Shown piece after piece: positions 5,980-63,637 of a DNA stretch of 64,000 nt. The notes under the pieces were generated by a model, which saw only the letters and a program-made list of their open reading frames with translations, had not been told where the DNA came from and searched no databases. The position numbers and the translations under genes are program-made. The stretch's first letter is position 1; each line of letters opens with the position of its first letter. The stretch is from an uncultured Candidatus Saccharibacteria bacterium (lineage in GTDB: Bacteria; Patescibacteriota; Saccharimonadia; Saccharimonadales; JAGQNK01): the NCBI GenBank assembly GCA_964636355.1, contig CAZWRG010000001.1:41687-105686 (forward strand), given 5' to 3'.

Positions 5980-6225
5980 TTAATTGGCAGATTTTATCGG
6001 TGTATCGTTTCGGTCGTCGCCGATTCGAATCAACTGGGTAGGATTAATTGAATTTCCGTTAAAATACTCTTTGCTGGGCTCGTTGAAATCAGCAGTGATC
6101 GGCTCAACTTTAGCGGCTTTTTCGTTTTTCTCTGGTGATGAAATGAAATTATTAGAGATAAAGAACGACAAAACTCCGCTAATAAATACAATGATAATAA
6201 TTAGTGCGATGTCTTTTTGTTTCAC
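5980..6225 (-). CDS. Small N-terminally membrane-anchored protein in the T4P operon
   Basis: 81 aa with a single N-terminal TM segment. Has a 4-nt ATGA overlap with the upstream pilO-like gene, which suggests translational coupling. Confidence 0.35.
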   Translation of the reverse strand: MKQKDIALIIIIVFISGVLSFFISNNFISSPEKNEKAAKVEPITADFNEPSKEYFNGNSINPTQLIRIGDDRNDTPIKSAN

Positions 6226-6956: not shown

Positions 6957-6959
6957 AAT

Positions 6960-7655: not shown

Positions 7656-7768
7656 GAAACGCCTCCGGCATTACGAGCCAAAAGCGAAACGCATAAAGCA
7701 GCAAGTAGCGACCGAAAATCAGTCTTTGGCACTTTATGAACTTTGAACTTTGTGACTTTATAACTCAT

Positions 7769-13705: not shown

Positions 13706-14452
13706 TCAGATTATCTTCTTCAGCAGATAGAACCTTTCGCGGTTGCCTTTGGCACCAGTGACTTCAGAGTCGGCCTTGTCGACAATCACGAACAGTTTCT
13801 TTACCCACAACTCAAAGTCCTGCAGAACCTTACGGCGCATTGCATCATTTTTTATAACTCCCTTGTGTTTTAAGCCACTTTGAACTGCTTCAAACTGCGG
13901 CTTAACCATGGCGATAATCTGTGTGTTTTTATCTGTTATTGTGGCAACATGCGGCAAAATCTCGCGAAGCGATATAAAGGAAACGTCACCTACCACCACA
14001 TCAATGTGTTCAGTTGGTCTAAAGTTCCGAATGTCGGTCTTTTCATGTAGCTCAATGCGCGGGTCGCCGTGTAAATTTGGGTGTAGTTGATCGGTTCCTA
14101 ACTCAACCGCATAGACTTTTTTGGCGCCATGCTGCAAGGCATAATCAGTAAATCCGCCAGTACTACTGCCAATATCCAGCACTACTTTGCCCTTAAAATC
14201 TAATTTGAGCATTTTAGCCACCGAGGACAACTTCAGCCCCGCCCGGCTGACATATTGCTCCCTTGTGGTTAGTCTAATTTTGTCGTCGGCCGACACCAGC
14301 GTGCCGGGCTTGGTAATAATTTTTTTATTCACCACCACCTTGCCGAGTCGAATGTAGCTCTCAGCCTGGGAGCGACTGGAAACAATCGCTCGTTTGACTA
14401 ATTCTTGATCAAGCCGGGTTTTGTTGGACGATAGATGTTGGACGCTGGACAT
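13706..14452 (-). CDS. tlyA: TlyA-family rRNA 2'-O-methyltransferase (S4 domain plus FtsJ methyltransferase)
   Basis: 248 aa. N-terminal S4 RNA-binding domain. SAM-binding motif VLDIGSSTGGFTD. Confidence 0.8.
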   Translation of the reverse strand: MSSVQHLSSNKTRLDQELVKRAIVSSRSQAESYIRLGKVVVNKKIITKPGTLVSADDKIRLTTREQYVSRAGLKLSSVAKMLKLDFKGKVVLDIGSSTGGFTDYALQHGAKKVYAVELGTDQLHPNLHGDPRIELHEKTDIRNFRPTEHIDVVVGDVSFISLREILPHVATITDKNTQIIAMVKPQFEAVQSGLKHKGVIKNDAMRRKVLQDFELWVKKLFVIVDKADSEVTGAKGNRERFYLLKKII

Positions 14453-14835
14453 TAGACAGCCTTCTTTGAAGCTTTGTGAGCTTTTAGCAAGCCATTGAGT
14501 AGTTTGTGGGCTATATTTGCGTTGTCTGCTATTACCTGAAAATCTTTGGATGCTATAAATCCCAAATCTCTTGCAAGAATTAGCTGACTTTTGATTTCAT
14601 ACAAAGACCCTGAAGCCATAGTGTAAAAGTGTTCTTTGTCAGCCTGAGTGCTTCTACCATAACCTTCGGCAATATTGGACGTCACGGAAACAGCAGCCCT
14701 CTTAAGCTGCGCACTTAGACCAAACTGTTCAGAGCTAGGAAAATTTTTTGTAAGTTTATATATATCAAGTGAAAGCCTGTGAGATCCCTGCCAAGCCTTG
14801 AGGTCTGTGAAAGAGGTCATTTTCCTATCATCCAT
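14452..14835 (-). CDS. Four-helix-bundle protein (TIGR02436-like; the family often found in 23S rRNA intervening sequences)
   Basis: 127 aa. Motifs LKAWQ...A and SNIAEGYGR are typical of this family. An alternative start at Met6 (14820) is possible. Confidence 0.6.
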   Translation of the reverse strand: MDDRKMTSFTDLKAWQGSHRLSLDIYKLTKNFPSSEQFGLSAQLKRAAVSVTSNIAEGYGRSTQADKEHFYTMASGSLYEIKSQLILARDLGFIASKDFQVIADNANIAHKLLNGLLKAHKASKKAV

Positions 14836-26092: not shown

Positions 26093-28516
26093 CTAGGCAA
26101 CATGCCAGCCATTAGCGCTGATTTTAGTAAGGACCGCTCGTTCATTTTGAGATATTGAGGCCGTGCCAACTGCTGTTGCGCCAGCACCAGCTTCAATACT
26201 AACTACCCCTGTGCCTAAGTTAATAACCGGGATTATAGCTCCCACCGGAATGGCGGCAGCGCTATTTTGGGGCAAACTAAGAGTCGAAGCCGAGCCATTA
26301 TTCATAGTAATTTGCTTACCTGCATCGCTTAACACCAATGTGTAGCTAGTGCCGGTCTGAGCATTTATGGCTGGTGCAATATTAGCCTGCAGAGTGCCCT
26401 CACCCTTGTTTATGGTAAGTTGAGCAGCACCGTTCCTAGAAAGATGAAGATCTTGCGCGCTAGTACCAGGACCTAGACTAATGGTTGTGCTTGGTAAACT
26501 AAATGCTAGTGTTGCAAGGGTATGGTTTACTACCGCAAAATTAGGGTTAGGACTGTTATCATAAACATTAAATCCTGGAGACCCTAGGAGTGAAGTAATT
26601 TCCACTTTTCCGGCTGCTTGTTGCCAGGTTTTAGTTGATGCCGAGAGGCTGGCTGTGACCTGAGAAATATCATAATCTGAACGACTGGTGTGGGCATAGG
26701 CTTGACCAATAGGGTCACCGCCGACCACCGCTGATACATGCCTGGATATCATGTGCCTTATGTATTCGCCAGGATGAACATTATCACTGCTATATACACC
26801 TTCAGGGTCGCCCATAGTACTATAATCACCAACCCCCAGAGAGCCATCAATAAGCCCTACGGACAGATTGGCGGCCAGCTGTCGCCCAACTTCTGCCTCT
26901 GCCCTGGTAAATACCTCATTTATGTAAGGAATCCATAGTGCTATATCGCACGAAGCTACAGACCTAATTGCATTAATTAGACCCGTGATCTTGGTTTCAT
27001 ATAAAGATGTGTCTGCTGCGGTTCCATCATTTGTCCCGGTAGATATAATCACTAAATCAGGCTGTAAGTTGTCAATTAGGTCTAAGCCAGCGAAAGAGTT
27101 ATTGGTAAAGTAATCACTGGCTGCTCCCGAACGAGAAACGTTAAAGACTCTAACTCCCCTGTTTTTGGTACTAGAATGAAAGTATACACCCTCAAGTATC
27201 ACGGTCTGTCCGCCAGTACAAATTGCCGTTAGATGAATATCATGATCGCTATAACTTAGCTCATCAGACGTCCAGATTTGTGAGGCTTTTTGAGCCCCGG
27301 AAGTGTCTATAGTGTGCAGTAAAGTGCCACCAGCACCACCGTCTCTAACTTCTATTAGACCACCAGTAGGCTGACTATTATAGATTATAGAAATAGCATC
27401 CGTTTTGGCCGTATGGGAAGCAATCTGACCGTTAGTCATTGATACCGAGTAGCCACCGATACCAGCCTGAACATCAGAGCCCTCACAAACATTTAACCTA
27501 CCAATGCCGGTTGCCGCTTTAGCATAGAGCATAAATCCAGCACTAGCTCTGGTCCCCCCAATGTAACTCAAGTCTTTAATAAGTCTGTTTGGCCAACAAG
27601 TGGTTCCGCCTAATGCTGATATTGAATCTCCAACTACTACGATGTTAACCGGAGAGGTTGGGGCATTGCTCAAAGCGGTAAACCAATTGTCTAAATTTTT
27701 CGGCCTAATATAGACACCTTCAGCTAATCCAGTGGCCTGGGTACTGCCAGAAACTGAGTTATCAACATATGCCTTGACAGCTTTTTGTGAAGGATATCGT
27801 TCGTCACTATTTGCCGTTAGGCTGCCGTCTGTATCCTTATTTGAAACATCTTCCTTAAGATCGAGGGCCTGCTCGGTAGCAGTTGAAAGTGGCTTATCGC
27901 TATCTGCTGTATTGTCGACATTCGATAAACCAACACTACTTTTATCAATTGAAACTGCGCCCGTCTGACCATTAACCGAAGCAACTGCGTTAACCTCTGC
28001 CCCATCTTGAATACCTTCTAGTTTGGATTTTTCAGCAGTTGTGAAGGACGCTGTAATATCATCAAGAACAGCCTGATTAGGATGACTATGTCTGGATGAA
28101 GTGTTAGCCGTGACGTCCGCATGACTTGACACCGCAGCGGCAAAATCAGTTATATCACTTGCTTGGTGATCATGGTTAGCGTCAGCTTTGTCAGCTAAGG
28201 CCGGGACTGTCGGGCTGGCAGCTGTTCCGCCAAGATCTCCAGTCAACTGAACTAGGCCAGGGGTTGTACCGTTAGCCAACGGAGCCCCTGAAGTAGCTAC
28301 CGAATCTACGTAAGCTTTATTTGCAGCATCAGTATTATCTACTGGGCTAGGAACTGTTACGCTACCAGTAAAAGTTGGATTGTTTAATGGAGCTAAGTTG
28401 CCTATTGTTCCAGATGTTTTTAGAGAGCCATCCTGATTATGTTCAACCGACAGGAATTCATTGAGCAAAGTACCCCATTTACCCTTGTCACCGCCTGGTT
28501 CTGGTAGTCTAGCCAT
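26093..28516 (-). CDS. Phage-tail-fibre-like repeat protein fused to an SGNH (GDSL) hydrolase domain, inserted between truB and rpsO
   Basis: 807 aa with no signal peptide. N-terminal half has tail-fibre-type repeats (LNNPTFTGSVTVPSP...AANKAYVD; DHQASDITDF; YPSQKAVKAYVDN). Central region has SGNH blocks GDSIS, GTNDG and DNVH. C-terminal ~200 aa are Gly/Ala/Ser-rich. Confidence 0.65.
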   Translation of the reverse strand: MARLPEPGGDKGKWGTLLNEFLSVEHNQDGSLKTSGTIGNLAPLNNPTFTGSVTVPSPVDNTDAANKAYVDSVATSGAPLANGTTPGLVQLTGDLGGTAASPTVPALADKADANHDHQASDITDFAAAVSSHADVTANTSSRHSHPNQAVLDDITASFTTAEKSKLEGIQDGAEVNAVASVNGQTGAVSIDKSSVGLSNVDNTADSDKPLSTATEQALDLKEDVSNKDTDGSLTANSDERYPSQKAVKAYVDNSVSGSTQATGLAEGVYIRPKNLDNWFTALSNAPTSPVNIVVVGDSISALGGTTCWPNRLIKDLSYIGGTRASAGFMLYAKAATGIGRLNVCEGSDVQAGIGGYSVSMTNGQIASHTAKTDAISIIYNSQPTGGLIEVRDGGAGGTLLHTIDTSGAQKASQIWTSDELSYSDHDIHLTAICTGGQTVILEGVYFHSSTKNRGVRVFNVSRSGAASDYFTNNSFAGLDLIDNLQPDLVIISTGTNDGTAADTSLYETKITGLINAIRSVASCDIALWIPYINEVFTRAEAEVGRQLAANLSVGLIDGSLGVGDYSTMGDPEGVYSSDNVHPGEYIRHMISRHVSAVVGGDPIGQAYAHTSRSDYDISQVTASLSASTKTWQQAAGKVEITSLLGSPGFNVYDNSPNPNFAVVNHTLATLAFSLPSTTISLGPGTSAQDLHLSRNGAAQLTINKGEGTLQANIAPAINAQTGTSYTLVLSDAGKQITMNNGSASTLSLPQNSAAAIPVGAIIPVINLGTGVVSIEAGAGATAVGTASISQNERAVLTKISANGWHVA

Positions 28517-47820: not shown

Positions 47821-49035
47821 CTATTGCCCAAGCTGAGTCTTCATGGCTGGCCAGCCAACTCGCTGCTCAATTGACCGCTGAAGATCCGGACCAGCCCTTT
47901 GGGTGATCCGATGAGCGCCGCCCGAACTGCCGACCACATCGTAAGTTAGCTTGATGTCGTACTTGCTTAACCCGCGCTTATTGATTTCTTCCAGGCAATC
48001 GTCTTGCCGCTTAATGCACTGTTCGCCGACTTCCAACCACTGCGACATGTCATCGGAATACGGAACATTGATCGCAACGTCAACACTAAGTCCGCGCATG
48101 GTTTCGGCATCGATCTGATCAAAAATAAAGTTACCGGTTGAGTAAAAAATTGGCTTGCCTTTATAAACCTCGCCATTTTGGACCCAGTGCGGACTGTTGC
48201 CAATCACAAACTCGGCTCCGAGATCGATGATTTTACGAGCAATAAATTCCTGGTCAGGCGCCGCTTTGGCATAATACTCCGCCCCGGCGTGCATAAATCC
48301 AAAAACCGGCATAAACCTGGCATATTCTTCCATGACCTCAATTTCGCCAGGTTTAGGCTCTCTGAAGAAATAATGCCAAGCACAAAAAGCCAACGGCAGA
48401 CGAGCTTTTTGCTCAGACTGATCCGGATGGCTAACCAGAACCGGCAGCGCAATAATCTCACAAGCCTCGTCTTTTAGCGACGGATCATGATGGCCGTATG
48501 TTTGAATTCCGGCGGCTTCAAGGTTTTTTAGTGTCATATTAAAAGCCTCGGGACCCAGATCGTTGGAGTGATTATTGGCCAAACTGACAATGGTGAATAA
48601 CTTTGACACCTCTGGCAGCCACTTTACATGACAGTTAAAAATCAGATTGCTGACCTGTGTGGCGTAAGGGATCACGTCGTCGGTGCTTGGACACTCCCAA
48701 TCAAGCGTCATGGCGTCGTACTTTTCTGGCTTAAAAGTATCCATTTTGCTAAACGGCTGCTTCAGATCATTACCGGCGTCGCGCTCTACGGCCCTGGCCA
48801 ACACAGCTGTTCCATTAAATAAATACCGCCCGGTCAACCGATCAGGTTTTGGCGCCTCTGGCTCAGCCTGCCTTACTGATTGGTCTGCCGGAGCTTCTGC
48901 CCGACCATTAAAAATAAAGATGTAGCTCAAGACAGCTGCCGCAACCAATAAAGCCAGCGCCAGACCAATCAAAAAGCGGTTTTTAAGGCTTTTGCTCTGC
49001 TGTCTTTGCTTATACCTTTGCATCTTGATTATCAT
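47821..49035 (-). CDS. CapA/PgsA-family metallophosphatase-fold protein (copy 1)
   Basis: 404 aa. N-terminal TM anchor. Motifs CapA/PGA_cap-like, including ...NSPHWVQNGEVYKGKPIFYSTGNFIFDQ. Confidence 0.7.
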   Translation of the reverse strand: MIIKMQRYKQRQQSKSLKNRFLIGLALALLVAAAVLSYIFIFNGRAEAPADQSVRQAEPEAPKPDRLTGRYLFNGTAVLARAVERDAGNDLKQPFSKMDTFKPEKYDAMTLDWECPSTDDVIPYATQVSNLIFNCHVKWLPEVSKLFTIVSLANNHSNDLGPEAFNMTLKNLEAAGIQTYGHHDPSLKDEACEIIALPVLVSHPDQSEQKARLPLAFCAWHYFFREPKPGEIEVMEEYARFMPVFGFMHAGAEYYAKAAPDQEFIARKIIDLGAEFVIGNSPHWVQNGEVYKGKPIFYSTGNFIFDQIDAETMRGLSVDVAINVPYSDDMSQWLEVGEQCIKRQDDCLEEINKRGLSKYDIKLTYDVVGSSGGAHRITQRAGPDLQRSIEQRVGWPAMKTQLGQ

Positions 49036-49072
49036 TATAGCAACATCAATAAGCGCTATAATTAGTATTAAG

Positions 49073-49963
49073 GTGAAGAATTATCAAATCCGGCCGCATC
49101 GATCATCAAAAGTAAAAACTATCTGGCTTAAGGCGTCACTTGTAGTTTTGCCGCTACTGTTAGGGCTTGGCTTTTGGCTGTATAAAACAAATCAAAAGCC
49201 CGGACCAGAGCCTACAGTGCCTAGTGCGTCTGAGGTTGATAAATCTAAAGCCGAACCCGAGACACAGCCCAAAACCGAGGCATTAAATCTACAGCCAGTT
49301 GTAGATAAATGGATCTCTGCACAGCCGGCCACCTACGCTATTATGGTTTATGATCCAGCCGCCGGGGAAGCCATCGGTTCAAACCTGGAAACTAAAGAAT
49401 TTTTCGCGGCTAGTTTATATAAATTATTCGTAGCCTATTTGGCGCTAATTGATTTTCAATCCGGTGCCCAGAACCCTCACGATGTAATCGTGGCTGGTCA
49501 AACCCGCCAACAGTGTGTCGATAAAATGATTCGCAGCTCTGACAGTCCTTGTGGCGAAGCGATGATGGCGGCGATGAATCGGAGTACAATTGAGCAAAAA
49601 CTGGCAAATATGGGCATAACAAACACTGATTTTAATGACCTAATGACAACCGCCAAAGATGTGGCAGTTGTCTTTGAATACATTCATAAAAGACGGCACT
49701 TGAACCAGCCAAACACGGCGCTGCTCAGAGACGCTCTGCTCAACCAACCGCAAATGTATAAAAATGGCTTGGCTAAGGGAGCGCCACAAGCAAAAGTTTA
49801 CTCTAAAGTCGGCTGGAATGAGCAACATAATTATCATGACGCTGGCCTGATGGCCCTGCCAGACGGCCGCGAATTTGTGGTGGTGATTTTAAGTCAAGGT
49901 AATGGCCGCAGTGCGCCAATTGCTGACTTTTCGTCGACTATTTATTCGGCGCTTACACGTTAG
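49073..49963 (+). CDS. Class-A beta-lactamase-like serine hydrolase
   Basis: Motifs SxxK (SLYK), SDS (the SDN-equivalent) and KVG (the KTG-equivalent). The start is placed at an in-frame GTG preceded by AAGGTG. The ORF track's ATG at 48992 would overlap the divergent CapA start by 44 nt. N-terminal signal anchor. Confidence 0.55.
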   Translation: MKNYQIRPHRSSKVKTIWLKASLVVLPLLLGLGFWLYKTNQKPGPEPTVPSASEVDKSKAEPETQPKTEALNLQPVVDKWISAQPATYAIMVYDPAAGEAIGSNLETKEFFAASLYKLFVAYLALIDFQSGAQNPHDVIVAGQTRQQCVDKMIRSSDSPCGEAMMAAMNRSTIEQKLANMGITNTDFNDLMTTAKDVAVVFEYIHKRRHLNQPNTALLRDALLNQPQMYKNGLAKGAPQAKVYSKVGWNEQHNYHDAGLMALPDGREFVVVILSQGNGRSAPIADFSSTIYSALTR

Positions 49964-50396
49964 GTGTATGATCGTCGGCGCCTTCGGTCACTAGAGTGTA
50001 ACTATGGCGAATCAGGCCCTGGATCTCCTCCCAATCCAGCTGGCCACTCAAAATAATCGTATTCCAATGTTTTTTGTTCAAGTGGTAACCTTCCATAACT
50101 TCGGTATATTTGTCCCTGAGCAATTTCGCCAGCTGGGGATCACATTTTAAGCTAATTCGCACTGGACTTTTGCCTTCAGCAATCAGAGCAAACATCTTAT
50201 CTTGAACTTTATAAACCGCCACGTCTTCGCCAAACGGATAATCCAGTTTGGCGCCAGGCATACTCAAAATATATTCTTCAACAGTTTCATGATCCATTAA
50301 ATTTATTATACAACACACTTTTTTCTGGATTATTATGAAGATTAAGTATATAATGCGAATCAATTGGAGAGTTAAGTCAAGACTGGGAGGTCTCAT
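49953..50396 (-). CDS. MmcQ/YjbR-family protein
   Basis: 147 aa. ...YILSMPGAKLDYPFGEDVAVYKV..KMFALI is typical of the YjbR family. Confidence 0.6.
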   Translation of the reverse strand: MRPPSLDLTLQLIRIIYLIFIIIQKKVCCIINLMDHETVEEYILSMPGAKLDYPFGEDVAVYKVQDKMFALIAEGKSPVRISLKCDPQLAKLLRDKYTEVMEGYHLNKKHWNTIILSGQLDWEEIQGLIRHSYTLVTEGADDHTPNV

Positions 50397-52203
50397 GCGT
50401 TACCATATTTATGGCCAACAACGTTCTACCAAAATAACAAATAAACTATTGTCTGTGCTTGCAGTGGCGTCGTTATTATTTAGCAGTGCCAGCTCCTTAC
50501 CACTGCTTTTTACTCAACGAGCCTTAGCTGTCACTAATACAGAAACTGTTTATCAAAATGATTTTGCTAATTCTTGGACTACTTGGACTTATCATGATGA
50601 TCGTAAAGATAGTACCGACCCGCTCAATGCAGCCACTCCTGCTCCAAACACCAATCACCAAATCGCTGCCAATCCAAATCCGGCTCCTGGCAATAATGGC
50701 GCCGTCAAATTAACTGCCTCAGGCGGACAAAAATTTAATCTAGCCAGCCTGCAATACTCTGGCACCAAGCTAAAAGACATCACTTCATTAGGATTTGATG
50801 TTTATACCGACAATCCTGGACAGGCCTACATTAATTTAGACATCAACTTCAATTCCTGGCAGCATGGACCAGGCACCGTAGACCACCAACGTTTAGTTTA
50901 TGTACCTCAAGGAGTTATAGCTAATCAGTGGAGCAGCCACGAAGCCACCACTCAAGGACTTTGGAGCTGGTCTGGTGGAGACACCTGGCCAGATGGCGTC
51001 GAAGGCCCTAGGACTTGGAGTAGTATTGTTGACGCATTTCCAAATGCCTATATATCACGAACATTAGCCGAAATAGTTTTTATCAAAAAGCCCTTCGGAA
51101 GCCTATATCTTAGAGCTGATGGAGACAGTCCAGTAACTGCCTATTTTGACAATATCTACCTAACTACGGCTACCCAAAACACAAAATATAATTTTGAGCT
51201 GTCGCCAGCTCCAGCAGGCTTAGGCTTTGTAGATGGCGCGCAAACTTGCGGTGGCGTAACAAGCACTAATTTTGCTCAACCTAAATGGGACTCGGTGTCT
51301 GGTGCCGTATCTTATGACTATCAGGCATTTTTGAATGGCAATCTGGTATTTGCTGCCAACTATAGCTCAACCCACCCTGGAGGAACCTTCGGCGGTGGCC
51401 AAAATGGCGAATGGTCATTTAGAGTTCGAGCCGTTAATGCTGATGGAACCGTAACAGCTTGGTCAGAGCCATGTGCCATTAACTTGGACACCTCTGCACC
51501 TACTTGGGACAGCAACCCAGTTCATGAGAGCCCTCTAAATGGTGCTTCAGTAACTGAAGGTAGCAACATTTTGATGCAATGGACTGATGCCAGCGATCCA
51601 AACGGCGTCAACTACTACTACGAGGTGTCGTATTCTAACCAAACTAATGGTCCTGGCGGTAGTTTCGTTAACCCAATCTGGACATTCGGTCCCCTAACCT
51701 CATCTGAGCATGACGGAACTGGAACAGTGGCTGGAAATTACTTCTGGCACGTTAAAGCCTGTGACGACTTAGGTAATTGTACACCTTGGACAGATCCATG
51801 GGGCGGTTCTGTGGTCGCTGAACAAATTAATCAACCAAACAGCCCGGCAACTGGTGGCGGTAATACGCTAGGAGCAACCACTGGTGGTAATACTCTGGTT
51901 GTAACCTCTGGGCGATCAGGTGCCGTTCAAGGAATCGGCGGAAATAATCAAGGATTCAACCAAACAAACAATCTTGGTGATGGTGATAACCAAGATCAAG
52001 AAGATGATGCCGGTGAAGTTGAAGGCGCCAACGTTGAAAATGACTTTGCCTCTATACCTGCCACCTTGGCAGCAGCTGACATCAATGAGCAAAGTGGCTG
52101 TACTAAAATCTTTGGTCTGTGCTGGTACTACTGGCCACCAATCATCGTGGCGGTACTAACCCTTGGTTACATTATTTACCGAAAAACCCAGACAGAAAAT
52201 TAG
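50395..52203 (+). CDS. Secreted surface protein with a C-terminal TM anchor; shares a ~105-aa Cys-containing C-terminal domain with the next gene
   Basis: Start taken at MRYHIY..., which has a GGGAGG ribosome-binding site. Signal peptide. Repeat/FN3-like modules. Shared domain signature W..SDP.GV.YYY.VS...NP..W.FGP....GT..G.Y.W.VKACD.L.NCTPWT.P. Gly-rich plus acidic stalk. Terminal TM segment with RK after it. Confidence 0.6.
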   Translation: MRYHIYGQQRSTKITNKLLSVLAVASLLFSSASSLPLLFTQRALAVTNTETVYQNDFANSWTTWTYHDDRKDSTDPLNAATPAPNTNHQIAANPNPAPGNNGAVKLTASGGQKFNLASLQYSGTKLKDITSLGFDVYTDNPGQAYINLDINFNSWQHGPGTVDHQRLVYVPQGVIANQWSSHEATTQGLWSWSGGDTWPDGVEGPRTWSSIVDAFPNAYISRTLAEIVFIKKPFGSLYLRADGDSPVTAYFDNIYLTTATQNTKYNFELSPAPAGLGFVDGAQTCGGVTSTNFAQPKWDSVSGAVSYDYQAFLNGNLVFAANYSSTHPGGTFGGGQNGEWSFRVRAVNADGTVTAWSEPCAINLDTSAPTWDSNPVHESPLNGASVTEGSNILMQWTDASDPNGVNYYYEVSYSNQTNGPGGSFVNPIWTFGPLTSSEHDGTGTVAGNYFWHVKACDDLGNCTPWTDPWGGSVVAEQINQPNSPATGGGNTLGATTGGNTLVVTSGRSGAVQGIGGNNQGFNQTNNLGDGDNQDQEDDAGEVEGANVENDFASIPATLAAADINEQSGCTKIFGLCWYYWPPIIVAVLTLGYIIYRKTQTEN

Positions 52204-53200: not shown

Positions 53201-53758
53201 GATTTTAGGCATAACTTCCAGATAATGTTGCAGCTCGGCAATTGAAGCCTGGATGTCGTCAAAGGCCCGATGCACCTCTTGTTTTTCGAACACTTCACCG
53301 TGTTTGCCCTGCATCAGAATTTTAAAACTACTGACGTCCAGCATTCGGTAGTGCAGCTTGAGGTCCAGAAGCGGCATCCACTGCTTAATAAATAGCCGGT
53401 CATTGTGAATTGAGTTGCCCGCTAAAATGGCCGGCTCATCACCAAAATGCTTTTCGATAAGTCCAATCATTTCAGATTCGACCTGTTTTAGGGACTTGCC
53501 TTCTTCCAGCCGGTTAATAAAATCGTCACGATTAGCTGGATATTCGCGCCACCAAATATTTTTTTTAATTCTATCAAGCACAACCTCTCGTTTTTGCTTG
53601 ATTCTGGCTTCATAACTGGCTAAGGTTTTGAAGTCGAAATCTGTTATTTCGGCCGCTATTTCCAGCAAAACATCCTTGGCTGGCTCTAGGCCAGTCATCT
53701 CGAGATCAACCCAAAGCAGCCTAGTCGGTATTTGGTTTTTATTCTTCATGTGATTCAT
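53189..53758 (-). CDS. orn: Oligoribonuclease (DEDDh 3'-5' exonuclease)
   Basis: LLWVDLEMTGLEP (Exo I motif) and H-x4-D (Exo III motif). About 180 aa. Confidence 0.8.
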   Translation of the reverse strand: MNHMKNKNQIPTRLLWVDLEMTGLEPAKDVLLEIAAEITDFDFKTLASYEARIKQKREVVLDRIKKNIWWREYPANRDDFINRLEEGKSLKQVESEMIGLIEKHFGDEPAILAGNSIHNDRLFIKQWMPLLDLKLHYRMLDVSSFKILMQGKHGEVFEKQEVHRAFDDIQASIAELQHYLEVMPKISNR

Positions 53759-54552
53759 TATACCGATAAAATCAGATTTGCGATTATTTCTGGGGCTTCT
53801 AGGGGTATTTGATGACCAGTTGGCAGCACTTTAAGACTGCAGTAGTTATTGTGGGTACATACGAGCTCCAAATTTTCTTTGGCGTGGGCCGAGGTTAGGT
53901 CTTTTTGGCCAATAACTATAACCGTAGGGATTTTTAAGGATTTAAGATCCTGTGTAACCTCATCTATAAAATACTTGTTTTTAAGTAGCTTTTTATAGAC
54001 AAAATAACGGTGCTTAGTGGCATCCTTTACAACTTCTTTGGGATATTTTTTGTACAACCTAACTGCCAATTTGGTTGGGAAAAGGCCGGAAATGCCCATC
54101 AACTTGACGATTATATTGGCCCGTCTTTTGCCCGTTAGTCTGTTTTTCTTAAGAGCGATTGACGCAACCTGCTGCTTGAACCTCAAATCATCAAATAACA
54201 CCGGCGCCGATAAAACAACGGAATGGAACTTCTTAGGATTCTTAAGCGCCCACTTTATTGCGATCATCGCACCCAGTGAGTGCCCAACCAAGACTGGAGG
54301 CTCACTAAATTTATAGTCTTTGAAGGTCTCTTCCAAACAATCAATAAAATGCTCCATTTTGTAACTTATATTTCTCGGCTTAGGAGATTTACCGTGACCT
54401 AGAAGATCCGGCAATATAAGTTCTCTGTCCTCACCGATCAAACTAACCACCGAAGTCCAATAATCGCTGGAAGACATCATGCCGTGGAGCAATATAACCG
54501 GTCGACCTTTGCCGAATTTTTTAACGTTTAACTTATAAGTTGTTTTATTCAT
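53758..54552 (-). CDS. Alpha/beta-fold hydrolase
   Basis: HGMMSS (oxyanion hole) and nucleophile elbow GHSLGA. C-terminal His. Confidence 0.7.
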   Translation of the reverse strand: MNKTTYKLNVKKFGKGRPVILLHGMMSSSDYWTSVVSLIGEDRELILPDLLGHGKSPKPRNISYKMEHFIDCLEETFKDYKFSEPPVLVGHSLGAMIAIKWALKNPKKFHSVVLSAPVLFDDLRFKQQVASIALKKNRLTGKRRANIIVKLMGISGLFPTKLAVRLYKKYPKEVVKDATKHRYFVYKKLLKNKYFIDEVTQDLKSLKIPTVIVIGQKDLTSAHAKENLELVCTHNNYCSLKVLPTGHQIPLEAPEIIANLILSV

Positions 54553-54574: not shown

Positions 54575-55372
54575 ATGATGAACATATATGCCATTAGGTA
54601 TAATGTGGTTATGAAAAAGAAAATACTCTTAGCTGTTTTGGGGGCCTTGGTGGCCTTATCCACCGTTGGCTATTTAACCTATACGAAATCAGAAAATCAG
54701 ACGCCTCAAAATAACACGCAATTAAATCCACAGAAAGATTCGGAAGATATAGAGCTACAAAAATCAACAAAAGATTTTAACAAAACGAGATTTTCCATCA
54801 CTGACCCGGACAGTATTTGGGTGGTGGTTAATAAGAACCGGCCGTTGCCTGACGGATACGAGCCAAGTGATTTGATTGTGCCATCAGTAAGACTTAGGTT
54901 GGATTCAACAAACCAGCAAATGAAATTTCGCCGCGCGGCTTCTGGGGCACTACAAGAAATGTTCACAGCTGCCGATAGGGCTGGCGTGACTTTGGTTTTT
55001 GGCAGCGGCTACCGCTCAGCGGCTCTGCAAAAACAATTTTATGACAATTATGTAGCCCAAGATGGTCAGGCAGCAGCTGATCGTTACAGCGCCCGGCCGG
55101 GAACGTCGGAGCATCAAACTGGATTATCCTTTGACGCTACCAATATACGTGGCGAGTGTCATTTAGAAACCTGTTTTAAGAACACTCCAGAGGGTAAATG
55201 GTTAGCTCAAAATGCTTATAAATACGGTTTTATTATTCGCTATCCGGACGGCAAAGAGGCAGTTACCGGCTATCAGTACGAGCCCTGGCACATGCGTTAT
55301 GTTGGCAAAGAGCTGGCCGCTGAAATGAGCAGACAAAATATTGTTACATTAGAAGAATTTTTCGATCTATAA
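54575..55372 (+). CDS. VanY-type D-alanyl-D-alanine carboxypeptidase (peptidase M15B)
   Basis: SGYRS, SEHQTG..D and EPWHMRY correspond to the zinc-binding H-x6-D ... H motifs of VanY/M15. Signal anchor. The likely true start is MKKKILL. Confidence 0.75.
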   Translation: MMNIYAIRYNVVMKKKILLAVLGALVALSTVGYLTYTKSENQTPQNNTQLNPQKDSEDIELQKSTKDFNKTRFSITDPDSIWVVVNKNRPLPDGYEPSDLIVPSVRLRLDSTNQQMKFRRAASGALQEMFTAADRAGVTLVFGSGYRSAALQKQFYDNYVAQDGQAAADRYSARPGTSEHQTGLSFDATNIRGECHLETCFKNTPEGKWLAQNAYKYGFIIRYPDGKEAVTGYQYEPWHMRYVGKELAAEMSRQNIVTLEEFFDL

Positions 55373-55393: not shown

Positions 55394-55422
55394 AGCTTCC
55401 TGAGGTCAGACCTCAGGAAGCT
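55394..55422. terminator. Perfect 14-bp palindromic hairpin between convergent genes
   Basis: AGCTTCCTGAGGTC A GACCTCAGGAAGCT. It overlaps the stop codon of the CapA gene. There is no clear U-tract. Confidence 0.5.
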
Positions 55423-56629
55423 AATATTCGGGGGATTCGATAATTTTAACTGTCGTAAACTTATTGAGCACATTGTTAATTTGTTCAACTTGAGCCGAAG
55501 CAGAAGTTTCGTGCAATGAACTGGCTAATTGTTCACTGGCTTGATCCAGGGCGTACATTTTAACGTTTTGGCGTGCAAGTAGTCGCTCAGCTCGCTTGTC
55601 GTCCGGCGACCAATCGTAATGATTATAAATTGGCAAAGCTGATAGCTCAGTTATTTTTTTGGTTTTAATATCGATATCCATAACCCCGATAACACCGGTC
55701 AAGGCCTCGATCTCCAGCTGGGTGTTCAAAAAATTGCCAATACTGTACCAGACAATCGTTTCACCACCACTGGCTGCCTTAAGCCGTTTTACGGGTTGCA
55801 GAACATGCGGGCCATGACCAACGATTATATCGGCTCCATTATCTGCTAAAAACTGACTTATTTGAGTCTGGCGAGTGTTAATTTCTGGTGAGTACTCTGT
55901 TCCCCAGCGCATACTCACCAAAATAATATCGGCCTCATCCCGAGCCGTTTTAAGTTGGCGCTCAGCCAACTGCTGATTGTACATAGTCACCCCATAGCCA
56001 TTGGCCACCGGACTGTTTGAATAAGTAGAATATGATAAAAACGCAAACTTTAATCCGTTATTTTCGAAATACTTAACCGAGTCGCGTTCAGCGGCCGAAC
56101 GATTAGCTCCGGCGTGAGCCAAGACATCCTGACGCTCCCATTCAGCCACCATAGCATCTATTAGCGACTGACCTTTGTCATAGGTATGATTAGTGCCGGT
56201 ATTGATCACGTTGCAGCCCAGCCGAACCATATCACGAGTCAGCTCCAGCGGCGCATTAAAAACCGGATAACCGCTAACTCCAAACTGCCTACCGCCGGCT
56301 GGCGTAGCCTGATTGCAAAACCGCACATCGGCTTTATCAAAGTACGGCTTCATATTGGCCATTAAGCTGAGGTAATTATATGAATTTCCGGCCTGAGCGT
56401 TCTGATTAACTGAATCATGAGCAATCACATCACCGCTCAGAATTAGCCGCAGGCTGGTCTTTGGCTCATCAGGGCTATTGTCTGCGGCGGTCTGATTAGC
56501 ATTTATGTCTGAACTGGGTGATGTTTGCTGGCCGAATCTCCAGGCCAAAATAACTGCCCCGCTAATTACCAAAATTAAACCAAAAACTATGAGTATTTTG
56601 GCTCGACGAGACTTAATCCCGCGCTTCAT
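55421..56629 (-). CDS. CapA/PgsA-family metallophosphatase-fold protein (copy 2)
   Basis: 402 aa. N-terminal TM anchor. ...SGDVIAHDS..., ...GHGPHVLQ... and ...SIGNFLN... motifs of the PGA_cap family. Confidence 0.7.
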   Translation of the reverse strand: MKRGIKSRRAKILIVFGLILVISGAVILAWRFGQQTSPSSDINANQTAADNSPDEPKTSLRLILSGDVIAHDSVNQNAQAGNSYNYLSLMANMKPYFDKADVRFCNQATPAGGRQFGVSGYPVFNAPLELTRDMVRLGCNVINTGTNHTYDKGQSLIDAMVAEWERQDVLAHAGANRSAAERDSVKYFENNGLKFAFLSYSTYSNSPVANGYGVTMYNQQLAERQLKTARDEADIILVSMRWGTEYSPEINTRQTQISQFLADNGADIIVGHGPHVLQPVKRLKAASGGETIVWYSIGNFLNTQLEIEALTGVIGVMDIDIKTKKITELSALPIYNHYDWSPDDKRAERLLARQNVKMYALDQASEQLASSLHETSASAQVEQINNVLNKFTTVKIIESPEY

Positions 56630-59264: not shown

Positions 59265-59954
59265 TTAGCGCTTATTGCCTCGCAGCAGACCACCAAGCGA
59301 CCACACTACAAAATACATACTGCCAAGCAGTAAAAAGAAAAGTAGCGTCGTAATTATGGTGTCCGGATGGGCCGCTGGATTAATTACCCTGTCTGATACA
59401 TCAAACAAAATCCCATCCGGATTGACTAAAACATCCCAGGTGTTCCACCGCAAACTACGCCCCAGATAAATCGCAAAACTACAGGCCAATATAACCCCGC
59501 CAATTATCAAGTGAGACGCCTGGATGCTTAATCTTTTTAGCAGTTGATTATGAATAATATAAATACTCATAAAACCAGCCACCAAACCATTAAAAATAAA
59601 CGACATAAACATTACGATGTCATAAAGCAGGCTGACTTCACCGGTTGGATGGAGATGAATCAGATCGCTAATCATATAAAAACTATTCGGTAAAAATCCT
59701 AGCCATAGCAGAAGCAGGCCCAGACTTTTTAAGGAGCGAATTGACCACGTACTCAAATTTTTGGCAAGAATCCATGCGAATAACAGCGGCAGCCAGCCTA
59801 AGAACAAATTCCAGACCATAAACCAATAGCGATCAGTTTGCGACTCTACCGACCGAAGAAAAAACAATGTCAAGGCTACGCCATTTGAAATCGCTAAAGC
59901 CCAAAGGACACTTCTAAAACTGCCCTTTGCTGCCGCGGTTGGTTGCTTTGCCAT
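59265..59954 (-). CDS. Polytopic membrane protein (DUF1361-like, hypothetical)
   Basis: Start moved to the internal ATG (MAKQPTAAAKG...). This avoids a 116-nt overlap with the convergently oriented transferase gene. About 6 TM segments. Confidence 0.45.
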   Translation of the reverse strand: MAKQPTAAAKGSFRSVLWALAISNGVALTLFFLRSVESQTDRYWFMVWNLFLGWLPLLFAWILAKNLSTWSIRSLKSLGLLLLWLGFLPNSFYMISDLIHLHPTGEVSLLYDIVMFMSFIFNGLVAGFMSIYIIHNQLLKRLSIQASHLIIGGVILACSFAIYLGRSLRWNTWDVLVNPDGILFDVSDRVINPAAHPDTIITTLLFFLLLGSMYFVVWSLGGLLRGNKR

Positions 59955-60036
59955 ACTAACATTGTACCAGCCAAATACCCCGACCATGCAGCTTTCACTA
60001 GGCACTATCCAAGCAAGTCGGTTATAATGTTGTTTA

Positions 60037-60669
60037 ATGAATTTAGTGGGTAATTTTTTAGATGGTTGCCGTAATGTTGTACGCGGCTTAATGCGATGGA
60101 TTGCCAGAGGGTTAAATAACTTCAGCGGCGGTCGAATATCGCCAAGCGGCATTACCTTAACCAGCCTATTTGCCCACCTGCCAATTGCTTGGCTGATTTC
60201 CCAAGATTATTTTGGCTACGCCGCAATCGGACTGGTAGTTTTTGGATTATTTGATGCTCTAGACGGGGAGATGGCTCGGCTGCAAAACAAAGCCTCCAGT
60301 GCTGGGATGCTGCTTGATGCCAGCACTGACCGCATGAAAGAAGTAATTTTGTACTGTGGCGCGGCCTTTGCGCTGGTTGCTCAAGATCAGGCCTTTTATG
60401 CCGTCTGGGCAGTGGCGGCCTGCGGCGCCAGTTTGTGTGTTTCGTACGTCAAGGCCAAAGGCGAAACCGCCATGATTGGCAGTAAATACAACCCCAACGA
60501 AATAAATCGTTTGTTCCAGGATGGTTTCCTACGGTTCGAAGTCCGCATGTTTCTGCTGATCATCGGCTTGCTTGCAAATGAACTAGGTGTGGTTCTTATA
60601 ATTATTGCCCTGATGGCCACACTAACTGCGCTGGAGAGGCTCATCAAAATCACCAAAAAACTGTCATGA
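60037..60669 (+). CDS. CDP-alcohol phosphatidyltransferase family protein
   Basis: Signature D-G-x2-A-R-x8-G-x3-D-x3-D, seen as DGEMARLQNKASSAGMLLDASTD. Multiple TM segments. Confidence 0.75.
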   Translation: MNLVGNFLDGCRNVVRGLMRWIARGLNNFSGGRISPSGITLTSLFAHLPIAWLISQDYFGYAAIGLVVFGLFDALDGEMARLQNKASSAGMLLDASTDRMKEVILYCGAAFALVAQDQAFYAVWAVAACGASLCVSYVKAKGETAMIGSKYNPNEINRLFQDGFLRFEVRMFLLIIGLLANELGVVLIIIALMATLTALERLIKITKKLS

Positions 60670-61322
60670 ACTTCAAGGTAGATCTACACACTCACTCGAT
60701 TGGTTCGCCGGATGGCGGAATCACTGCCGCAGAGTACAAACAAGCGCTCGACACCAAACTGCTGGACTGTATTGCGATAACTGATCACAACTCTGTTGAT
60801 TTTGGCTTGCAGCTGCAAGCTGAACTGGGTGATCAGATTATTGTTGGTGAAGAAATCATGACCACCACCGGTGAAATTATTGGGCTGTTTCTTAAAAAAA
60901 CCATTCCGCCTAACCAAAGCCCGGAGGCCACAATTGAGCAAATCAAAGCCCAAGGTGGAATTGTTTACATTCCCCACCCTTTTGAAACTGTCCGCAAAGG
61001 CCTTCACCCAGCTACTTTGGAAAAACTAGCTGATGATGTTGATATCATTGAGGTCTGCAATGGGCGGGCATTTTTTCAAAATCGCAGTGAACAGGCGGTG
61101 GTTTGGGCGCGACTTAATCATAAACTGACAGCTGCCAGTAGCGATGCTCATGGCTACCGCGGACTTGGCGCAACCTATACTGCCATGACAGCGCTGCCGA
61201 CCAAGGAAAATCTACTGGAACTAATGGTCGGCAGTACGCCAATTACCGGCCGGCCCACCATGCGCTCCCTGCTCTATCCTAAACTTAATCGTCTCCGTAA
61301 AAAATTGAGGTCAGCCAAGTGA
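60666..61322 (+). CDS. PHP-domain metal-dependent phosphoesterase
   Basis: N-terminal VDLHTHS and ...ITDHN... are PHP motifs. 4-nt overlaps with both neighbouring genes. Confidence 0.7.
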   Translation: MNFKVDLHTHSIGSPDGGITAAEYKQALDTKLLDCIAITDHNSVDFGLQLQAELGDQIIVGEEIMTTTGEIIGLFLKKTIPPNQSPEATIEQIKAQGGIVYIPHPFETVRKGLHPATLEKLADDVDIIEVCNGRAFFQNRSEQAVVWARLNHKLTAASSDAHGYRGLGATYTAMTALPTKENLLELMVGSTPITGRPTMRSLLYPKLNRLRKKLRSAK

Positions 61323-61864
61323 TCGCGGAGGCTTTATGGTTCTTTTTACCGGCTGGCATTGCTAACGCCATTCCAGTGTTTGTTTGTAAATTACCACTGC
61401 TAAGAAACCTCAATACACCGCTGGATTTTGGCAAAACTTGGCGCGGTGAACCGATTTTTGGGGCTAACAAAACCTGGCGCGGCCTGATCTCTGGAATTAT
61501 CATCGCCACGGTTGTAATTGGCATTCAAAAATACCTCTTCAGTCGACAGCTTTGGGCCTTGGAATTGGCTTGGTTCGACTATCGACCAAGCTACATCTGG
61601 CTGCTTGGGCCGTTGTTTGGCTCGGGGGCTTTAATTGCCGATGCCGCGGAAAGCTTCTTCAAGCGACGACTTAAAATAGCGCCCGGTAAAAGCTGGTTTC
61701 CATTTGACCAGATTGATTATATTTTAGGCGGAATATTGTTCAGCCTGCTGGTTGTTCAGCTGTCGATCAGCAAATATATTTTGGTGATTGGTGTGTGGTT
61801 TTTTATGCATTTGATTGCCAGCTATATCGGATATTTAACTGGCCTGAAAAAACACCCTATTTAA
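61319..61864 (+). CDS. CarS-like (DUF46/CDP-archaeol-synthase family) CTP-transferase membrane protein
   Basis: 181 aa with 4-5 TM segments. C-terminal FKRRLKIAPGKSWFPFDQIDY resembles the CdsA/CarS K-R...D..D signature. Assignment is by motif recall only. Confidence 0.5.
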   Translation: MIAEALWFFLPAGIANAIPVFVCKLPLLRNLNTPLDFGKTWRGEPIFGANKTWRGLISGIIIATVVIGIQKYLFSRQLWALELAWFDYRPSYIWLLGPLFGSGALIADAAESFFKRRLKIAPGKSWFPFDQIDYILGGILFSLLVVQLSISKYILVIGVWFFMHLIASYIGYLTGLKKHPI

Positions 61865-62583
61865 GAGTAGTTCTTAGCTTCAATAAAACACTCCTGGCTA
61901 AAAGCCTGACAAACAAAATCAAGTGAGAATCGCTCTAACATGCCAGCGGTTTGAGATGGCATGGCCTGAAGCGCCTGACATTTTTTGTCTATAAGTTCAG
62001 CATTTAGCTCAAAAACTAAATCGCAAGCTTCACGGTTATAAATTCTAGGCCTATCAATATTAAAGAAAATGTTCAGTTTTTGATCCATGATTTTTAGGTA
62101 GTTCTGATAACTATCACTAGAGATAACCGAGTAAAGCAGCCTTGGCCTATAGCTTAGTTTCGCGCAAGCTAAAGTTGCCCAGCGCGACAATGCAATGTGA
62201 TCATCATGACCAGTCAGACCATCCGGGCCAAAGCTAATAATGGTGTCAGGTTTTATCTGCTCGATTATGGGCATTAGTTTTTCTAAGGCGGCTTGATCAG
62301 AAATCTGAGCACATTGTCCATCCTTATAATCCAACCAAAAATGATTTTTAATGCCTAAAATTTCTAAAGCGGCATCTGATTCGGCTTGCCGAATATCAGC
62401 CAGTTTATCTGGCGGCCAACGCTTGGGATCATAAACCCCAGCCTCACCCCGGGTAGCCGTAATACAGGCCACATTTTGACCATTTTGGGCAGCCGCGGCC
62501 ATAAGTCCAGCGCTGCTAAATGTCTCATCATCCGGGTGGGCCCAGATCCCAAGAACACTGCCAAGCGCTGCCACATCATCCAT
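61861..62583 (-). CDS. PIG-L/LmbE-family N-acetylglucosaminyl deacetylase
   Basis: N-terminal AHPDDE(T) zinc-binding motif. Later HxDH. 240 aa. Confidence 0.75.
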   Translation of the reverse strand: MDDVAALGSVLGIWAHPDDETFSSAGLMAAAAQNGQNVACITATRGEAGVYDPKRWPPDKLADIRQAESDAALEILGIKNHFWLDYKDGQCAQISDQAALEKLMPIIEQIKPDTIISFGPDGLTGHDDHIALSRWATLACAKLSYRPRLLYSVISSDSYQNYLKIMDQKLNIFFNIDRPRIYNREACDLVFELNAELIDKKCQALQAMPSQTAGMLERFSLDFVCQAFSQECFIEAKNYS

Positions 62584-62599
62584 GGCTTAAATTATACGC

Positions 62600-63637
62600 T
62601 TATTTAGCAAGTTCGGCTTTTAGCTTTTCGATAAGTTCAACTGGTGTAGGGTTCAGCCCGTTTAACAGCGCCAAATACAAACTCACAAAATCACCGTAGG
62701 CAATCACCCAAATTAATTGCTCAATTAAATCACTACCTTTTGCTTCAACGATCTGGGCCGCTGGCCGCCGGCCGGATAGTAACTTATCAGTAATTTCAAA
62801 GCGTTTTTGGGTCCTGATGTGTTCTAAATCACTTCTCAGGTCAATTACCGCGTACGGCTTCTGGATGGGATGGCTGGTCCAACCCAGAAATTCATTGTGA
62901 TTAAATTCCGGCAACTGATTACACCAGGCCACATTTTTGGCATTTTCATTAAAACTGATTTTCCACTTATAAGCAGCTGGGAAAAACTTAGGTCCGGCAT
63001 AAATGACCGGTGATTTGCCCATTAATTCATGAGCTAGCTGCTTGGCTGGATTTTTTGATGATGGCACAGCGGCCGTCCAATCAGACATTTGCTCAGCTAG
63101 CCACTGCGCGGCTGCTTCCAGCTGTTTAATTTTGCCACTGACAAGCGATGCTGATTCCATAATTTCAAGCAGCGCCCGCAGCTGATAACCAAGAGTCATT
63201 CGAGGCTGAAAACCAGTTGGCAAAGTTATAAATGGCAAGTTATTTTTCTCGGCTTTTTTTAACAGCTCGCCGCCAGACGCAACCACTATGATTTGCGGCC
63301 GGTTTTGCTTGAGACTCAGCGCCTGATCAAGCGCGCTTAGAGTTTCTTCAGTGTTCCCCGAATAACTAGAACAAATTAATAATGTGTCGCCGCCAACAAA
63401 CTCTGGCAAGTCATAGTCGTTAACAATTTTAAAAGGAATATTAATGCCGGGCCATGATTCAAACACCTTAGCCGCCAAGCCCGACCCGCCCATGCCAGCC
63501 ACTACAATATTGCTAATCTCAGCACTCGGCGTAAATTTAAACCCAAAATCATGTTGGTATTGTTGCCATTGTTTCTCAGCCAATCCTAGCGCATCTTGTG
63601 CATCGCGGTCGTGAATGTATTTTAGATCGTCTAGCAA
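62600..63637 (-). CDS. Bifunctional phosphoglucose/phosphomannose isomerase (SIS domain)
   Basis: 345 aa. SIS motif VVAGMGGSGLAAK. C-terminal PGI/PMI-type domain. Confidence 0.7.
   Translation of the reverse strand: MLDDLKYIHDRDAQDALGLAEKQWQQYQHDFGFKFTPSAEISNIVVAGMGGSGLAAKVFESWPGINIPFKIVNDYDLPEFVGGDTLLICSSYSGNTEETLSALDQALSLKQNRPQIIVVASGGELLKKAEKNNLPFITLPTGFQPRMTLGYQLRALLEIMESASLVSGKIKQLEAAAQWLAEQMSDWTAAVPSSKNPAKQLAHELMGKSPVIYAGPKFFPAAYKWKISFNENAKNVAWCNQLPEFNHNEFLGWTSHPIQKPYAVIDLRSDLEHIRTQKRFEITDKLLSGRRPAAQIVEAKGSDLIEQLIWVIAYGDFVSLYLALLNGLNPTPVELIEKLKAELAK

Follow-up and report, generated by a model that had tools for sequence, protein, structure and literature searches.

Within a 64,000-nucleotide (nt) stretch of DNA from an uncultured Candidatus Saccharibacteria bacterium (contig CAZWRG010000001.1, positions 41,687 to 105,686 of the forward strand; hereafter the window, to which coordinates refer unless another locus is named), the functional unit identified here is a three-gene operon at 60037..61864 (+) that is robust and conserved among relatives in the Candidate Phyla Radiation (CPR). 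The operon encodes (i) a cytidine diphosphate (CDP)-alcohol phosphatidyltransferase of 210 amino acids (60037..60669, +); (ii) a soluble PHP-family metal-dependent phosphoesterase of 218 amino acids (60666..61322, +); and (iii) an integral-membrane cytidine triphosphate (CTP) transferase of the CarS family with 181 amino acids and a GTG start (61319..61864, +), the proposed CDP-diacylglycerol synthase. With modest confidence, we favor the view that this trio is a head-group module for scavenged or recycled glycerolipids in a fatty-acid-auxotrophic CPR bacterium, operating through phosphatidylinositol-phosphate (PIP) or phosphatidylglycerol-phosphate (PGP), with dephosphorylation by the PHP protein.

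Organization and conservation of the operon

The three genes are translationally coupled, as a sequence-only reading of this DNA had claimed. The transferase and PHP genes overlap in ATGA at 60666-60669, the PHP and CarS genes overlap in GTGA at 61319-61322, and a GAGG lies about 7 nt upstream of the CarS GTG start. The transferase start at 60037 is backed by full-length homologues of 206-216 amino acids.

CarS-like relatives are encoded in at least 456 species-level CPR genomes. Cross-genome counts refer to the best 80 of these species-representative genomes (79 loci for some neighbor counts), and a gene was counted as a neighbor when it lay within 4 kb of the CarS-like gene. Labels of Saccharibacteria or Saccharimonadia apply to almost all of the 80, the exceptions being a few Dojkabacteria/WS6, Levybacteria and Parcubacteria; going by these relatives, the window belongs to a Saccharibacteria-type CPR bacterium. 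A CDP-alcohol transferase occurs near the CarS-like gene in 69 of the 80 genomes, a PHP gene in 60, and the complete trio in 53. For the 51 co-directional trios, in which inter-gene gaps were extrapolated, the median gaps were −3 and +2 nt, and gaps of at most 30 nt were found in 50 of the 51. Whether the cluster is split in related genomes thus has two answers: the trio holds together, whereas the PIG-L gene that the sequence-only reading had included lies near CarS in only 17 of the 80. The proposal of a lipid head-group unit, following the logic of CDP activation, CDP-alcohol transfer and phosphatase, stands for the trio, which is co-directional, coupled and conserved in relatives.

Three types of transferase were distinguished near the CarS-like genes. 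Type a, the one in the window, and type c carry an SY(V/I)(K/R)A motif and a C-terminal Arg. In type b, DGxxA(E/D) replaces DGxxAR, and neither the SYxKA motif nor the C-terminal Arg is present. Presence of the PHP gene follows this division: it accompanies types a/c in 53 loci and is missing in 8, but accompanies type b alone in one locus and is missing in seven (Fisher test, p = 4 × 10−5, uncorrected for phylogeny). The divergent type b transferase may use a different donor or acceptor, judging from its altered motifs. It converges on the CarS-like gene in several of our loci (L005:6534-7154, −; L018:6540-7157, −; L026:6534-7148, −; also L041, L065 and L068), and both transferase types stand beside the CarS gene in L023, L024, L029, L034 and L070.

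A lipid kinase of the YegS/DgkB type (DAGK_cat) was also seen beside the CarS-like gene (L005:5075-5959, −; L029:2213-3250, −; upstream of CarS in L041). DAGK_cat homologues occur near the CarS-like gene in 8 of 79 loci, and several genomes, including L005 and L041, share the layout DAGK_cat (−), CarS (+), CDP-alcohol phosphatidyltransferase (−). With such a neighbor, diacylglycerol might be salvaged by conversion to phosphatidate and then to the CDP-lipid. In the Levybacteria genome L057, the order is transferase (−) and CarS (+) followed by an endonuclease/exonuclease/phosphatase (EEP)-family protein (6527-7282, −), with no PHP gene nearby; an open reading frame (ORF) of the same family also lies upstream of CDPOHc in the Patescibacteria contig L076. 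The CarS gene in both loci is accompanied by a transferase resembling archaetidylinositol-phosphate (AIP) synthase.

The CDP-alcohol phosphatidyltransferase

The transferase matches PF01066 with 50.8 bits against a cut-off of 22 (3 × 10−13), and the signature DGxxARx8Gx3Dx3D reported for it earlier is exact (DGEMARLQNKASSAGMLLDASTD at 60262..60330). The full motif D(x)2DG(x)2AR(x)8G(x)3D(x)3D is invariant in the family (D73, D76, G77, A80, R81, G90, D94 and D98).

The enzyme resembles PIP and AIP synthases. When the family profile was searched against the PDB, the PIP synthase of Mycobacterium tuberculosis (Mtb; 6H53) was the best match (7 × 10−14); mycobacterial and Renibacterium PIP synthases came first (7 × 10−14 to 4 × 10−11), followed by AF2299 and DIPP synthase. 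Neither PgsA nor PSS was found by this profile in the PDB at E ≤ 0.01, and the pgsA models (TIGR00560/PRK10832) gave no match to the transferase at the same threshold. Together with its best NCBIfam matches, which are to AIP and PIP synthases, this ranking places the transferase nearest to enzymes that use inositol phosphate, in line with the sequence-only reading. Residues S132, K135 and R195 of Mtb PIP synthase are implicated in inositol-phosphate binding (Clarke et al., PMC4634129). They align with S136, K139 and R201 of the window enzyme, all three of which are invariant in the family. The equivalent of a further acceptor-phosphate residue, R155, is ambiguous (RFEVR in the window, RPER or RSER in PIP synthases).

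Motif scans covered the 64-kb window and 886 kb of related loci. Within the window they returned no second CDP-alcohol transferase motif and no PlsC or phospholipase D (PLD) motif; in the 886 kb of related loci, no inositol monophosphatase (IMPase) motif was found.

The CarS-like protein

That the 181-amino-acid protein belongs to the CarS family, as first suggested from sequence, is well supported: it matches PF01864 with 95.1 bits against a cut-off of 22 (6.5 × 10−27), over 168 of 175 profile positions. ApCarS (5GUF) is its only significant sequence match in the PDB (8.5 × 10−11). An AlphaFold2 (AF2) model with a predicted local distance difference test (pLDDT) value of 93 shows five long helices, and in a Foldseek search with this model 5GUF was the sole match with E ≤ 0.001 (template-modeling (TM) scores 0.71/0.81, root-mean-square deviation 2.5 Å). 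The cytoplasmic block that binds CTP and metal, ADAAESFFKRRL...PFDQIDY, aligns with GDMAGSFVKRRL...LLDQLDF of ApCarS, and D108, E111, S112, F113, K115, R116, G123, D130, Q131 and D133 are invariant among 18 sequences. The NCBIfam equivalog of archaeal CarS (NF003114) gave 124.9 bits, below its cut-off of 148.

No CdsA signature was found by motif scan anywhere in the 64-kb window. In the 886 kb of related loci, the sole match to the CdsA pattern was an out-of-frame chance match inside a Pif1 helicase gene. From its context, the likely substrate of the CPR enzyme is diacyl phosphatidate and not an isoprenoid ether lipid; both the DAGK_cat neighbor and the fatty-acid lipids of CPR cells argue for phosphatidate. 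The sequence-only reading had called a CarS-like enzyme in a bacterium notable, which overstates the case given how many CPR genomes encode one (see above), and NCBI and JGI already label such homologues CDP-archaeol synthase.

The PHP phosphoesterase

The PHP protein falls just below the Pfam gathering cut-offs (PF02811, 21.8 bits against 26.4; PF13263 (PHP_C), 21.2 against 21.3), which marks a divergent subfamily. Its earlier assignment is nevertheless secure, resting on metal ligands and fold and not on the Pfam score. The ligands H8, H10, H41, E62/E63, H104, D160 and H162 are invariant among 24 sequences. Foldseek searches with the AF2 model (pLDDT 84) returned 3e38, 2anu and 7ug9 with E-values of 8 × 10−11 to 2 × 10−10 and query TM scores of 0.59-0.71, and a CehA/McbA metallohydrolase domain was matched with 1.7 × 10−15. 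A conserved basic C-terminal helix (LLYPK..RLRKK), spanning residues 199-217 in the model, fits binding to an anionic membrane surface. To our knowledge, no PHP-family lipid-phosphate phosphatase has been described. Its gene neighborhood, and the transferase types with which it occurs, suggest that it may act as a PIP or PGP phosphatase.

Proposed pathway

CPR cells contain fatty-acid-based polar lipids although fatty-acid synthesis is not encoded (PMC7242380), which agrees with the pathway proposed here. Phosphatidate would be scavenged from the host or drawn from recycled lipid, and in some relatives the DAGK_cat kinase would supply it from diacylglycerol. The CarS-family membrane enzyme, going by its family, fold and context, would convert phosphatidate and CTP to CDP-diacylglycerol. 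The transferase would then move the phosphatidyl group onto a phosphorylated polyol, for which myo-inositol-1-phosphate is the favored candidate and sn-glycerol-3-phosphate the alternative, giving PIP or PGP. Finally, the PHP phosphoesterase, which its basic C-terminal helix would anchor to the anionic membrane surface, might strip the terminal phosphate to leave phosphatidylinositol (PI) or phosphatidylglycerol (PG), a step suggested by gene context. The scheme also agrees with PI synthesis in prokaryotes, which proceeds via PIP and requires a phosphatase that has not been identified in Actinobacteria and Archaea (PMC4634129, PMC9385802); the PIP phosphatase of Bacteroides is PgpA-like (PMC9246714).

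Several observations weigh against this proposal. The best NCBIfam matches of the transferase are below their cut-offs (AIP synthase NF040950, 80.4 bits against 180; PIP synthase NF045883, 71.2 against 170), and scans of the 64-kb window and the 886 kb of related loci detected no motif of inositol-phosphate synthase. SaPgsA likewise binds the acceptor phosphate via Lys and Arg residues (PMC8640168), so that the conserved residues indicate a phosphorylated acceptor without separating inositol phosphate from glycerol phosphate. The chief difficulty is that archaeal CarS strongly prefers its isoprenoid ether substrate over phosphatidate, and that AfCarS fails to complement an Escherichia coli cdsA mutant (PMC9385802); use of diacyl phosphatidate would therefore need a change in specificity. 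The nearest solved PHP structures are uncharacterized proteins or RNase AM. Among the 80 loci, PHP and CarS are adjacent without a nearby transferase in 6, and a type a/c transferase accompanies CarS without PHP in 8. In the accessible part of the supplementary tables for Southlakia epibionticum, a cultured oral Saccharibacterium, one non-essential CDP-alcohol transferase is listed and neither PF01864 nor PF01148 has an entry. As far as these tables go, the module is not universal, and some host-adapted lineages, at least, appear able to do without it or to have lost it.

Neighboring genes

The region comprises six ORFs with the domains first assigned to them, at 59265..60152 (−), 60037..60669 (+), 60666..61322 (+), 61319..61864 (+), 61861..62583 (−) and 62600..63637 (−). 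The first encodes a DUF1361 polytopic membrane protein (PF07099, 6 × 10−36). It does not converge on the trio, as had been thought; it is read from the minus strand, and its 5′ end and that of the trio face each other, which makes it a divergent neighbor. The longest ORF extends to 60152, but the true start is probably the ATG at 59954, which would give a protein of 229 amino acids (59265..59954). This start is favored by the median length of 230 amino acids among homologues, and it leaves a divergent intergenic region of 82 nt. Within that region lies a promoter-like TAGGCA-18-TATAAT (59999..60028, +; 10/12 matches), which ends 8 nt before the first ATG of the trio. The count of promoter-like sites in the intergenic region is not above shuffled expectation, and the evidence for this one is positional only.

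Beyond the trio, a PIG-L/LmbE-family deacetylase (61861..62583, −; PF02585, 106.9 bits, 1.4 × 10−30) is a convergent neighbor and probably outside the unit; its stop codon and that of CarS overlap in TTAA at 61861-61864. Next to it, a bifunctional phosphoglucose/phosphomannose isomerase (PGI/PMI) is encoded at 62600..63637 (−; TIGR02128, 240.6 bits, above the cut-off of 213.9; bact-PGI_C, 1.9 × 10−45). Both genes are downstream of the trio by coordinates, as described before, but not by transcription: they lie on the minus strand, convergent on the end of the trio, and therefore cannot share its transcript. PGI/PMI, a central-metabolism gene, was found near the CarS-like gene in 26 of 79 loci, all within one syntenic clade, and its earlier inclusion in the cluster is not upheld.

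In 25 of 79 loci DUF1361 flanks the trio, and every one of these also has the gene for arginyl-tRNA synthetase (ArgRS). ArgRS, DUF1361, PIG-L and PGI co-occur in one subset of about 25 genomes, and PIG-L is missing from about 9 of the 26 loci with the ArgRS-DUF1361-trio-PGI block, roughly a third. Such a distribution fits local synteny passed on by descent and not a functional link. DUF1361, ArgRS, PIG-L and PGI/PMI are syntenic neighbors in one Saccharibacteria clade and not demonstrated parts of the pathway. Other recurrent neighbors, namely Pif1 helicase, a class II aminoacyl-tRNA synthetase, RadC, a short-chain dehydrogenase and ORFs of 150-330 amino acids without a Pfam match, were considered as members of the unit and dismissed as unrelated synteny.

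Alternative explanations

The same module might instead yield PG, if the transferase were a PGP synthase of divergent type and the PHP protein a PGP phosphatase of a new kind. Lipoprotein maturation and lysyl-PG both depend on PG, and the annotation of a soil Saccharibacterium includes a lysyl-PG synthase (PMC6031116). Several source annotations name close transferase homologues phosphatidylglycerophosphate synthase, and the lack of an inositol-phosphate synthase motif in the window and the 886 kb of related loci suits this product. In SaPgsA, moreover, the acceptor phosphate is bound by a basic residue directly after the last catalytic Asp and by further Lys/Arg residues (PMC8640168), and the window enzyme has D98-R99. 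Set against these points are the silence of the pgsA models where the AIP and PIP models reach 80 and 71 bits, the family profile, which recovers AF2299, DIPP synthase and PIP synthases and misses the solved PgsA, and the SY(V/I)KA motif and C-terminal Arg, which match PIP synthase positions. We regard a PG product as possible but rather doubtful. A true archaeal-type pathway would go further: CarS would form CDP-archaeol from scavenged or self-made archaetidic acid, the transferase would be an AIP synthase and the PHP protein an AIP phosphatase. The best curated matches of both membrane enzymes are indeed archaeal equivalogs (80 bits for the transferase and 134 bits for a Levybacteria type c homologue), and some Patescibacteria are described as parasites of archaea. 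Both proteins nevertheless score below the equivalog cut-offs, in situ measurements show CPR lipids to be built on fatty acids (PMC7242380), cultured Saccharibacteria grow on Actinobacteria, a diacylglycerol-kinase-type kinase adjoins the CarS gene in some genomes, and the window showed no genes for isoprenoid lipids, which makes such a pathway highly improbable.

Other alternatives concern single genes. The PHP protein may not be a head-group phosphatase but a pyrophosphatase for the pyrophosphate released by CarS, a phospholipase C/D-like enzyme that supplies the pathway by stripping head groups from host lipids, or an RNA or nucleotide phosphoesterase that merely shares the operon. The loci with PHP beside CarS and no transferase nearby and the similarity to uncharacterized PHP proteins and RNase AM fit such roles; PHP enzymes also include diesterases, and the basic tail could bind nucleic acid. 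However, presence of the gene tracks the transferase type expected to release a phosphorylated product, its tight coupling to both flanking genes, by overlap or near-overlap, is kept in 50 of 51 trios, and a cultured Saccharibacterium has a separate RNase-AM-like PHP protein of 310 amino acids; we consider these roles unlikely. Less probable still is the construction of a glucosamine (GlcN)-inositol, glycosylphosphatidylinositol (GPI)-like or phosphatidylinositol mannoside (PIM)-like glycolipid, as had been read from the cluster, in which PIG-L would de-N-acetylate an N-acetylglucosamine (GlcNAc)-inositol lipid and PGI/PMI would provide for mannose. PIG-L directly adjoins the trio, the two convergent genes overlapping at their stop codons, and is kept there in 17 genomes, its family includes GlcNAc-PI and GlcNAc-inositol deacetylases, and PIM synthesis genes were proposed in a soil Saccharibacterium (PMC6031116). 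Yet the gene runs opposite to the trio and is lacking in 63 of 80 loci and in about a third of those sharing the block, and its NCBIfam scores are far below the equivalog cut-offs (BshB2, 83.6 against 195; MshB, 58 against 224; Mca, 55.5 against 277). No glycosyltransferase was found in or beside the cluster in the ORF list or by Pfam scan, and PGI/PMI is a housekeeping glycolytic enzyme. The GPI-like idea thus rests on adjacency in one clade. A pathway to a soluble product, such as a di-inositol-phosphate-like osmolyte or CDP-glycerol chemistry, was also considered and judged unlikely; the cytidylyltransferase is a five-helix membrane CarS and not a soluble nucleotidyltransferase.

Significance

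For a soil Saccharibacterium, Starr et al. (2018) predicted from annotation a route from phosphatidate via CDP-diacylglycerol to PGP, cardiolipin or PI and PIMs (PMC6031116), so the general idea of such a pathway is not new. In the open-access literature, we found no discussion of a CarS-family cytidylyltransferase in CPR, of the conserved trio, or of a PHP phosphatase in a lipid role. A link of CDP-archaeol synthase or CarS with Saccharibacteria, CPR or Patescibacteria appeared there only as incidental co-mention, and CarS is not treated by Coleman et al. (2019).

A stronger version of the favored reading can be offered tentatively, and we think it less probable than not in its full form: CPR bacteria might apply a head-group module of archaeal type to diacyl lipids of the bacterial kind, with a CarS-family enzyme replacing CdsA, and the PHP protein might found a new class of lipid head-group phosphatases that is the missing PIP/AIP (or PGP) phosphatase. 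If this were true, the split between CarS and CdsA would not follow the divide between archaeal and bacterial lipids. CarS-family activity on fatty-acyl phosphatidate would blur the boundary between the two families that is said to uphold the lipid divide (PMC9385802), and a PHP-family enzyme may fill the phosphatase gap in inositol-lipid synthesis by prokaryotes (PMC4634129). It is an open question how Patescibacteria form their membranes when they lack fatty-acid or complete phospholipid synthesis, and the trio offers three clonable candidates for head-group remodelling, joined in some genomes by a diacylglycerol-kinase-type partner. Should the reading be wrong, what is left is a routinely annotated gene neighborhood.

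Other features of the window

Elsewhere, the window carries housekeeping genes and a block of type IV pilus genes, and scanning its 64 kb for tRNAs and Rfam families gave no rRNA, tRNA or other Rfam matches. The pilus block (171..8809, −) encodes a prepilin peptidase, a pilin with N-methylation motif, a PilC-like T2SSF protein, two T2SSE ATPases and PilM, as well as several ORFs without Pfam match, and two ORFs of about 240 amino acids beside the pilus genes (6222..7655, −) likewise lack one. Large ORFs without any Pfam match were found at 8998..11259 (−, 753 amino acids) and 50335..52203 (+, 622 amino acids). A 23S rRNA intervening-sequence protein (14452..14835, −; PF05635, 5 × 10−36) stands alone among housekeeping genes in this rRNA-free window.

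An 807-amino-acid protein with a GDSL lipase/acylhydrolase domain (26093..28516, −) and an alpha/beta-hydrolase (53758..54552, −) could conceivably be lipid-scavenging enzymes in a fatty-acid auxotroph. Two PGA_cap (CapA-like) paralogues are encoded 6 kb apart (47821..49035, − and 55421..56629, −), with the cell-wall genes for a VanY carboxypeptidase (54575..55372) and a Beta-lactamase2 family protein (48992..49963) between or beside them.

Comparison with known systems

The inositol-lipid cluster of Bacteroides (BT_1523, PIP synthase; BT_1525, PgpA-like PIP phosphatase; BT_1526, inositol-phosphate synthase; PMC9246714) follows the same logic of clustering a synthase with a phosphatase. It uses a PgpA-family phosphatase and includes an inositol-phosphate synthase but no CDP-diacylglycerol synthase, whereas the CPR trio has no inositol-phosphate synthase nearby, carries the CDP-activating enzyme in the operon and has a PHP protein as the proposed phosphatase. 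With prokaryotic PIP synthases (Mtb PgsA1, 6H53; Renibacterium, 5D91) and archaeal AIP synthase, the window transferase has the complete CDP-alcohol motif in common, but its identity to them is low and its scores are less than half of the equivalog cut-offs.

The CarS-like protein shares with ApCarS (5GUF) the Pfam family, the five-helix fold and the conserved D..SF.KR...DQ.D block, and like archaeal CarS it is placed upstream of a CDP-alcohol transferase in the pathway. Unlike ApCarS, to which it is about 27% identical, it belongs to a CPR clade with a family-specific insertion at about residues 79-96 that includes an invariant Tyr88. CdsA (PF01148; Thermotoga maritima, 4Q2E/4Q2G) belongs to the same CTP-transferase superfamily and catalyzes the reaction proposed here, from CTP and phosphatidate to CDP-diacylglycerol and pyrophosphate. 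The CarS-like protein is, however, about 100 residues shorter than CdsA and matches PF01148 only in part (26.1 bits, profile positions 157-230 of 264), its fold match to TmCdsA (4Q2G) is weak (TM 0.42-0.50, E > 0.1), and the CdsA signature HGGxxDRxD (PROSITE PS01315) was not found in the window.

Finally, the PHP protein has the distorted TIM-barrel and the His/Asp/Glu metal ligands in common with other PHP phosphoesterases (TM0559, 2ANU; BVU_3505, 3E38; RNase AM, 7UG9; Cv1693, 2YB1; histidinol phosphatase). It differs from them in its compact size of 218 amino acids, in its conserved basic C-terminal helix, and in being encoded between two membrane lipid enzymes.

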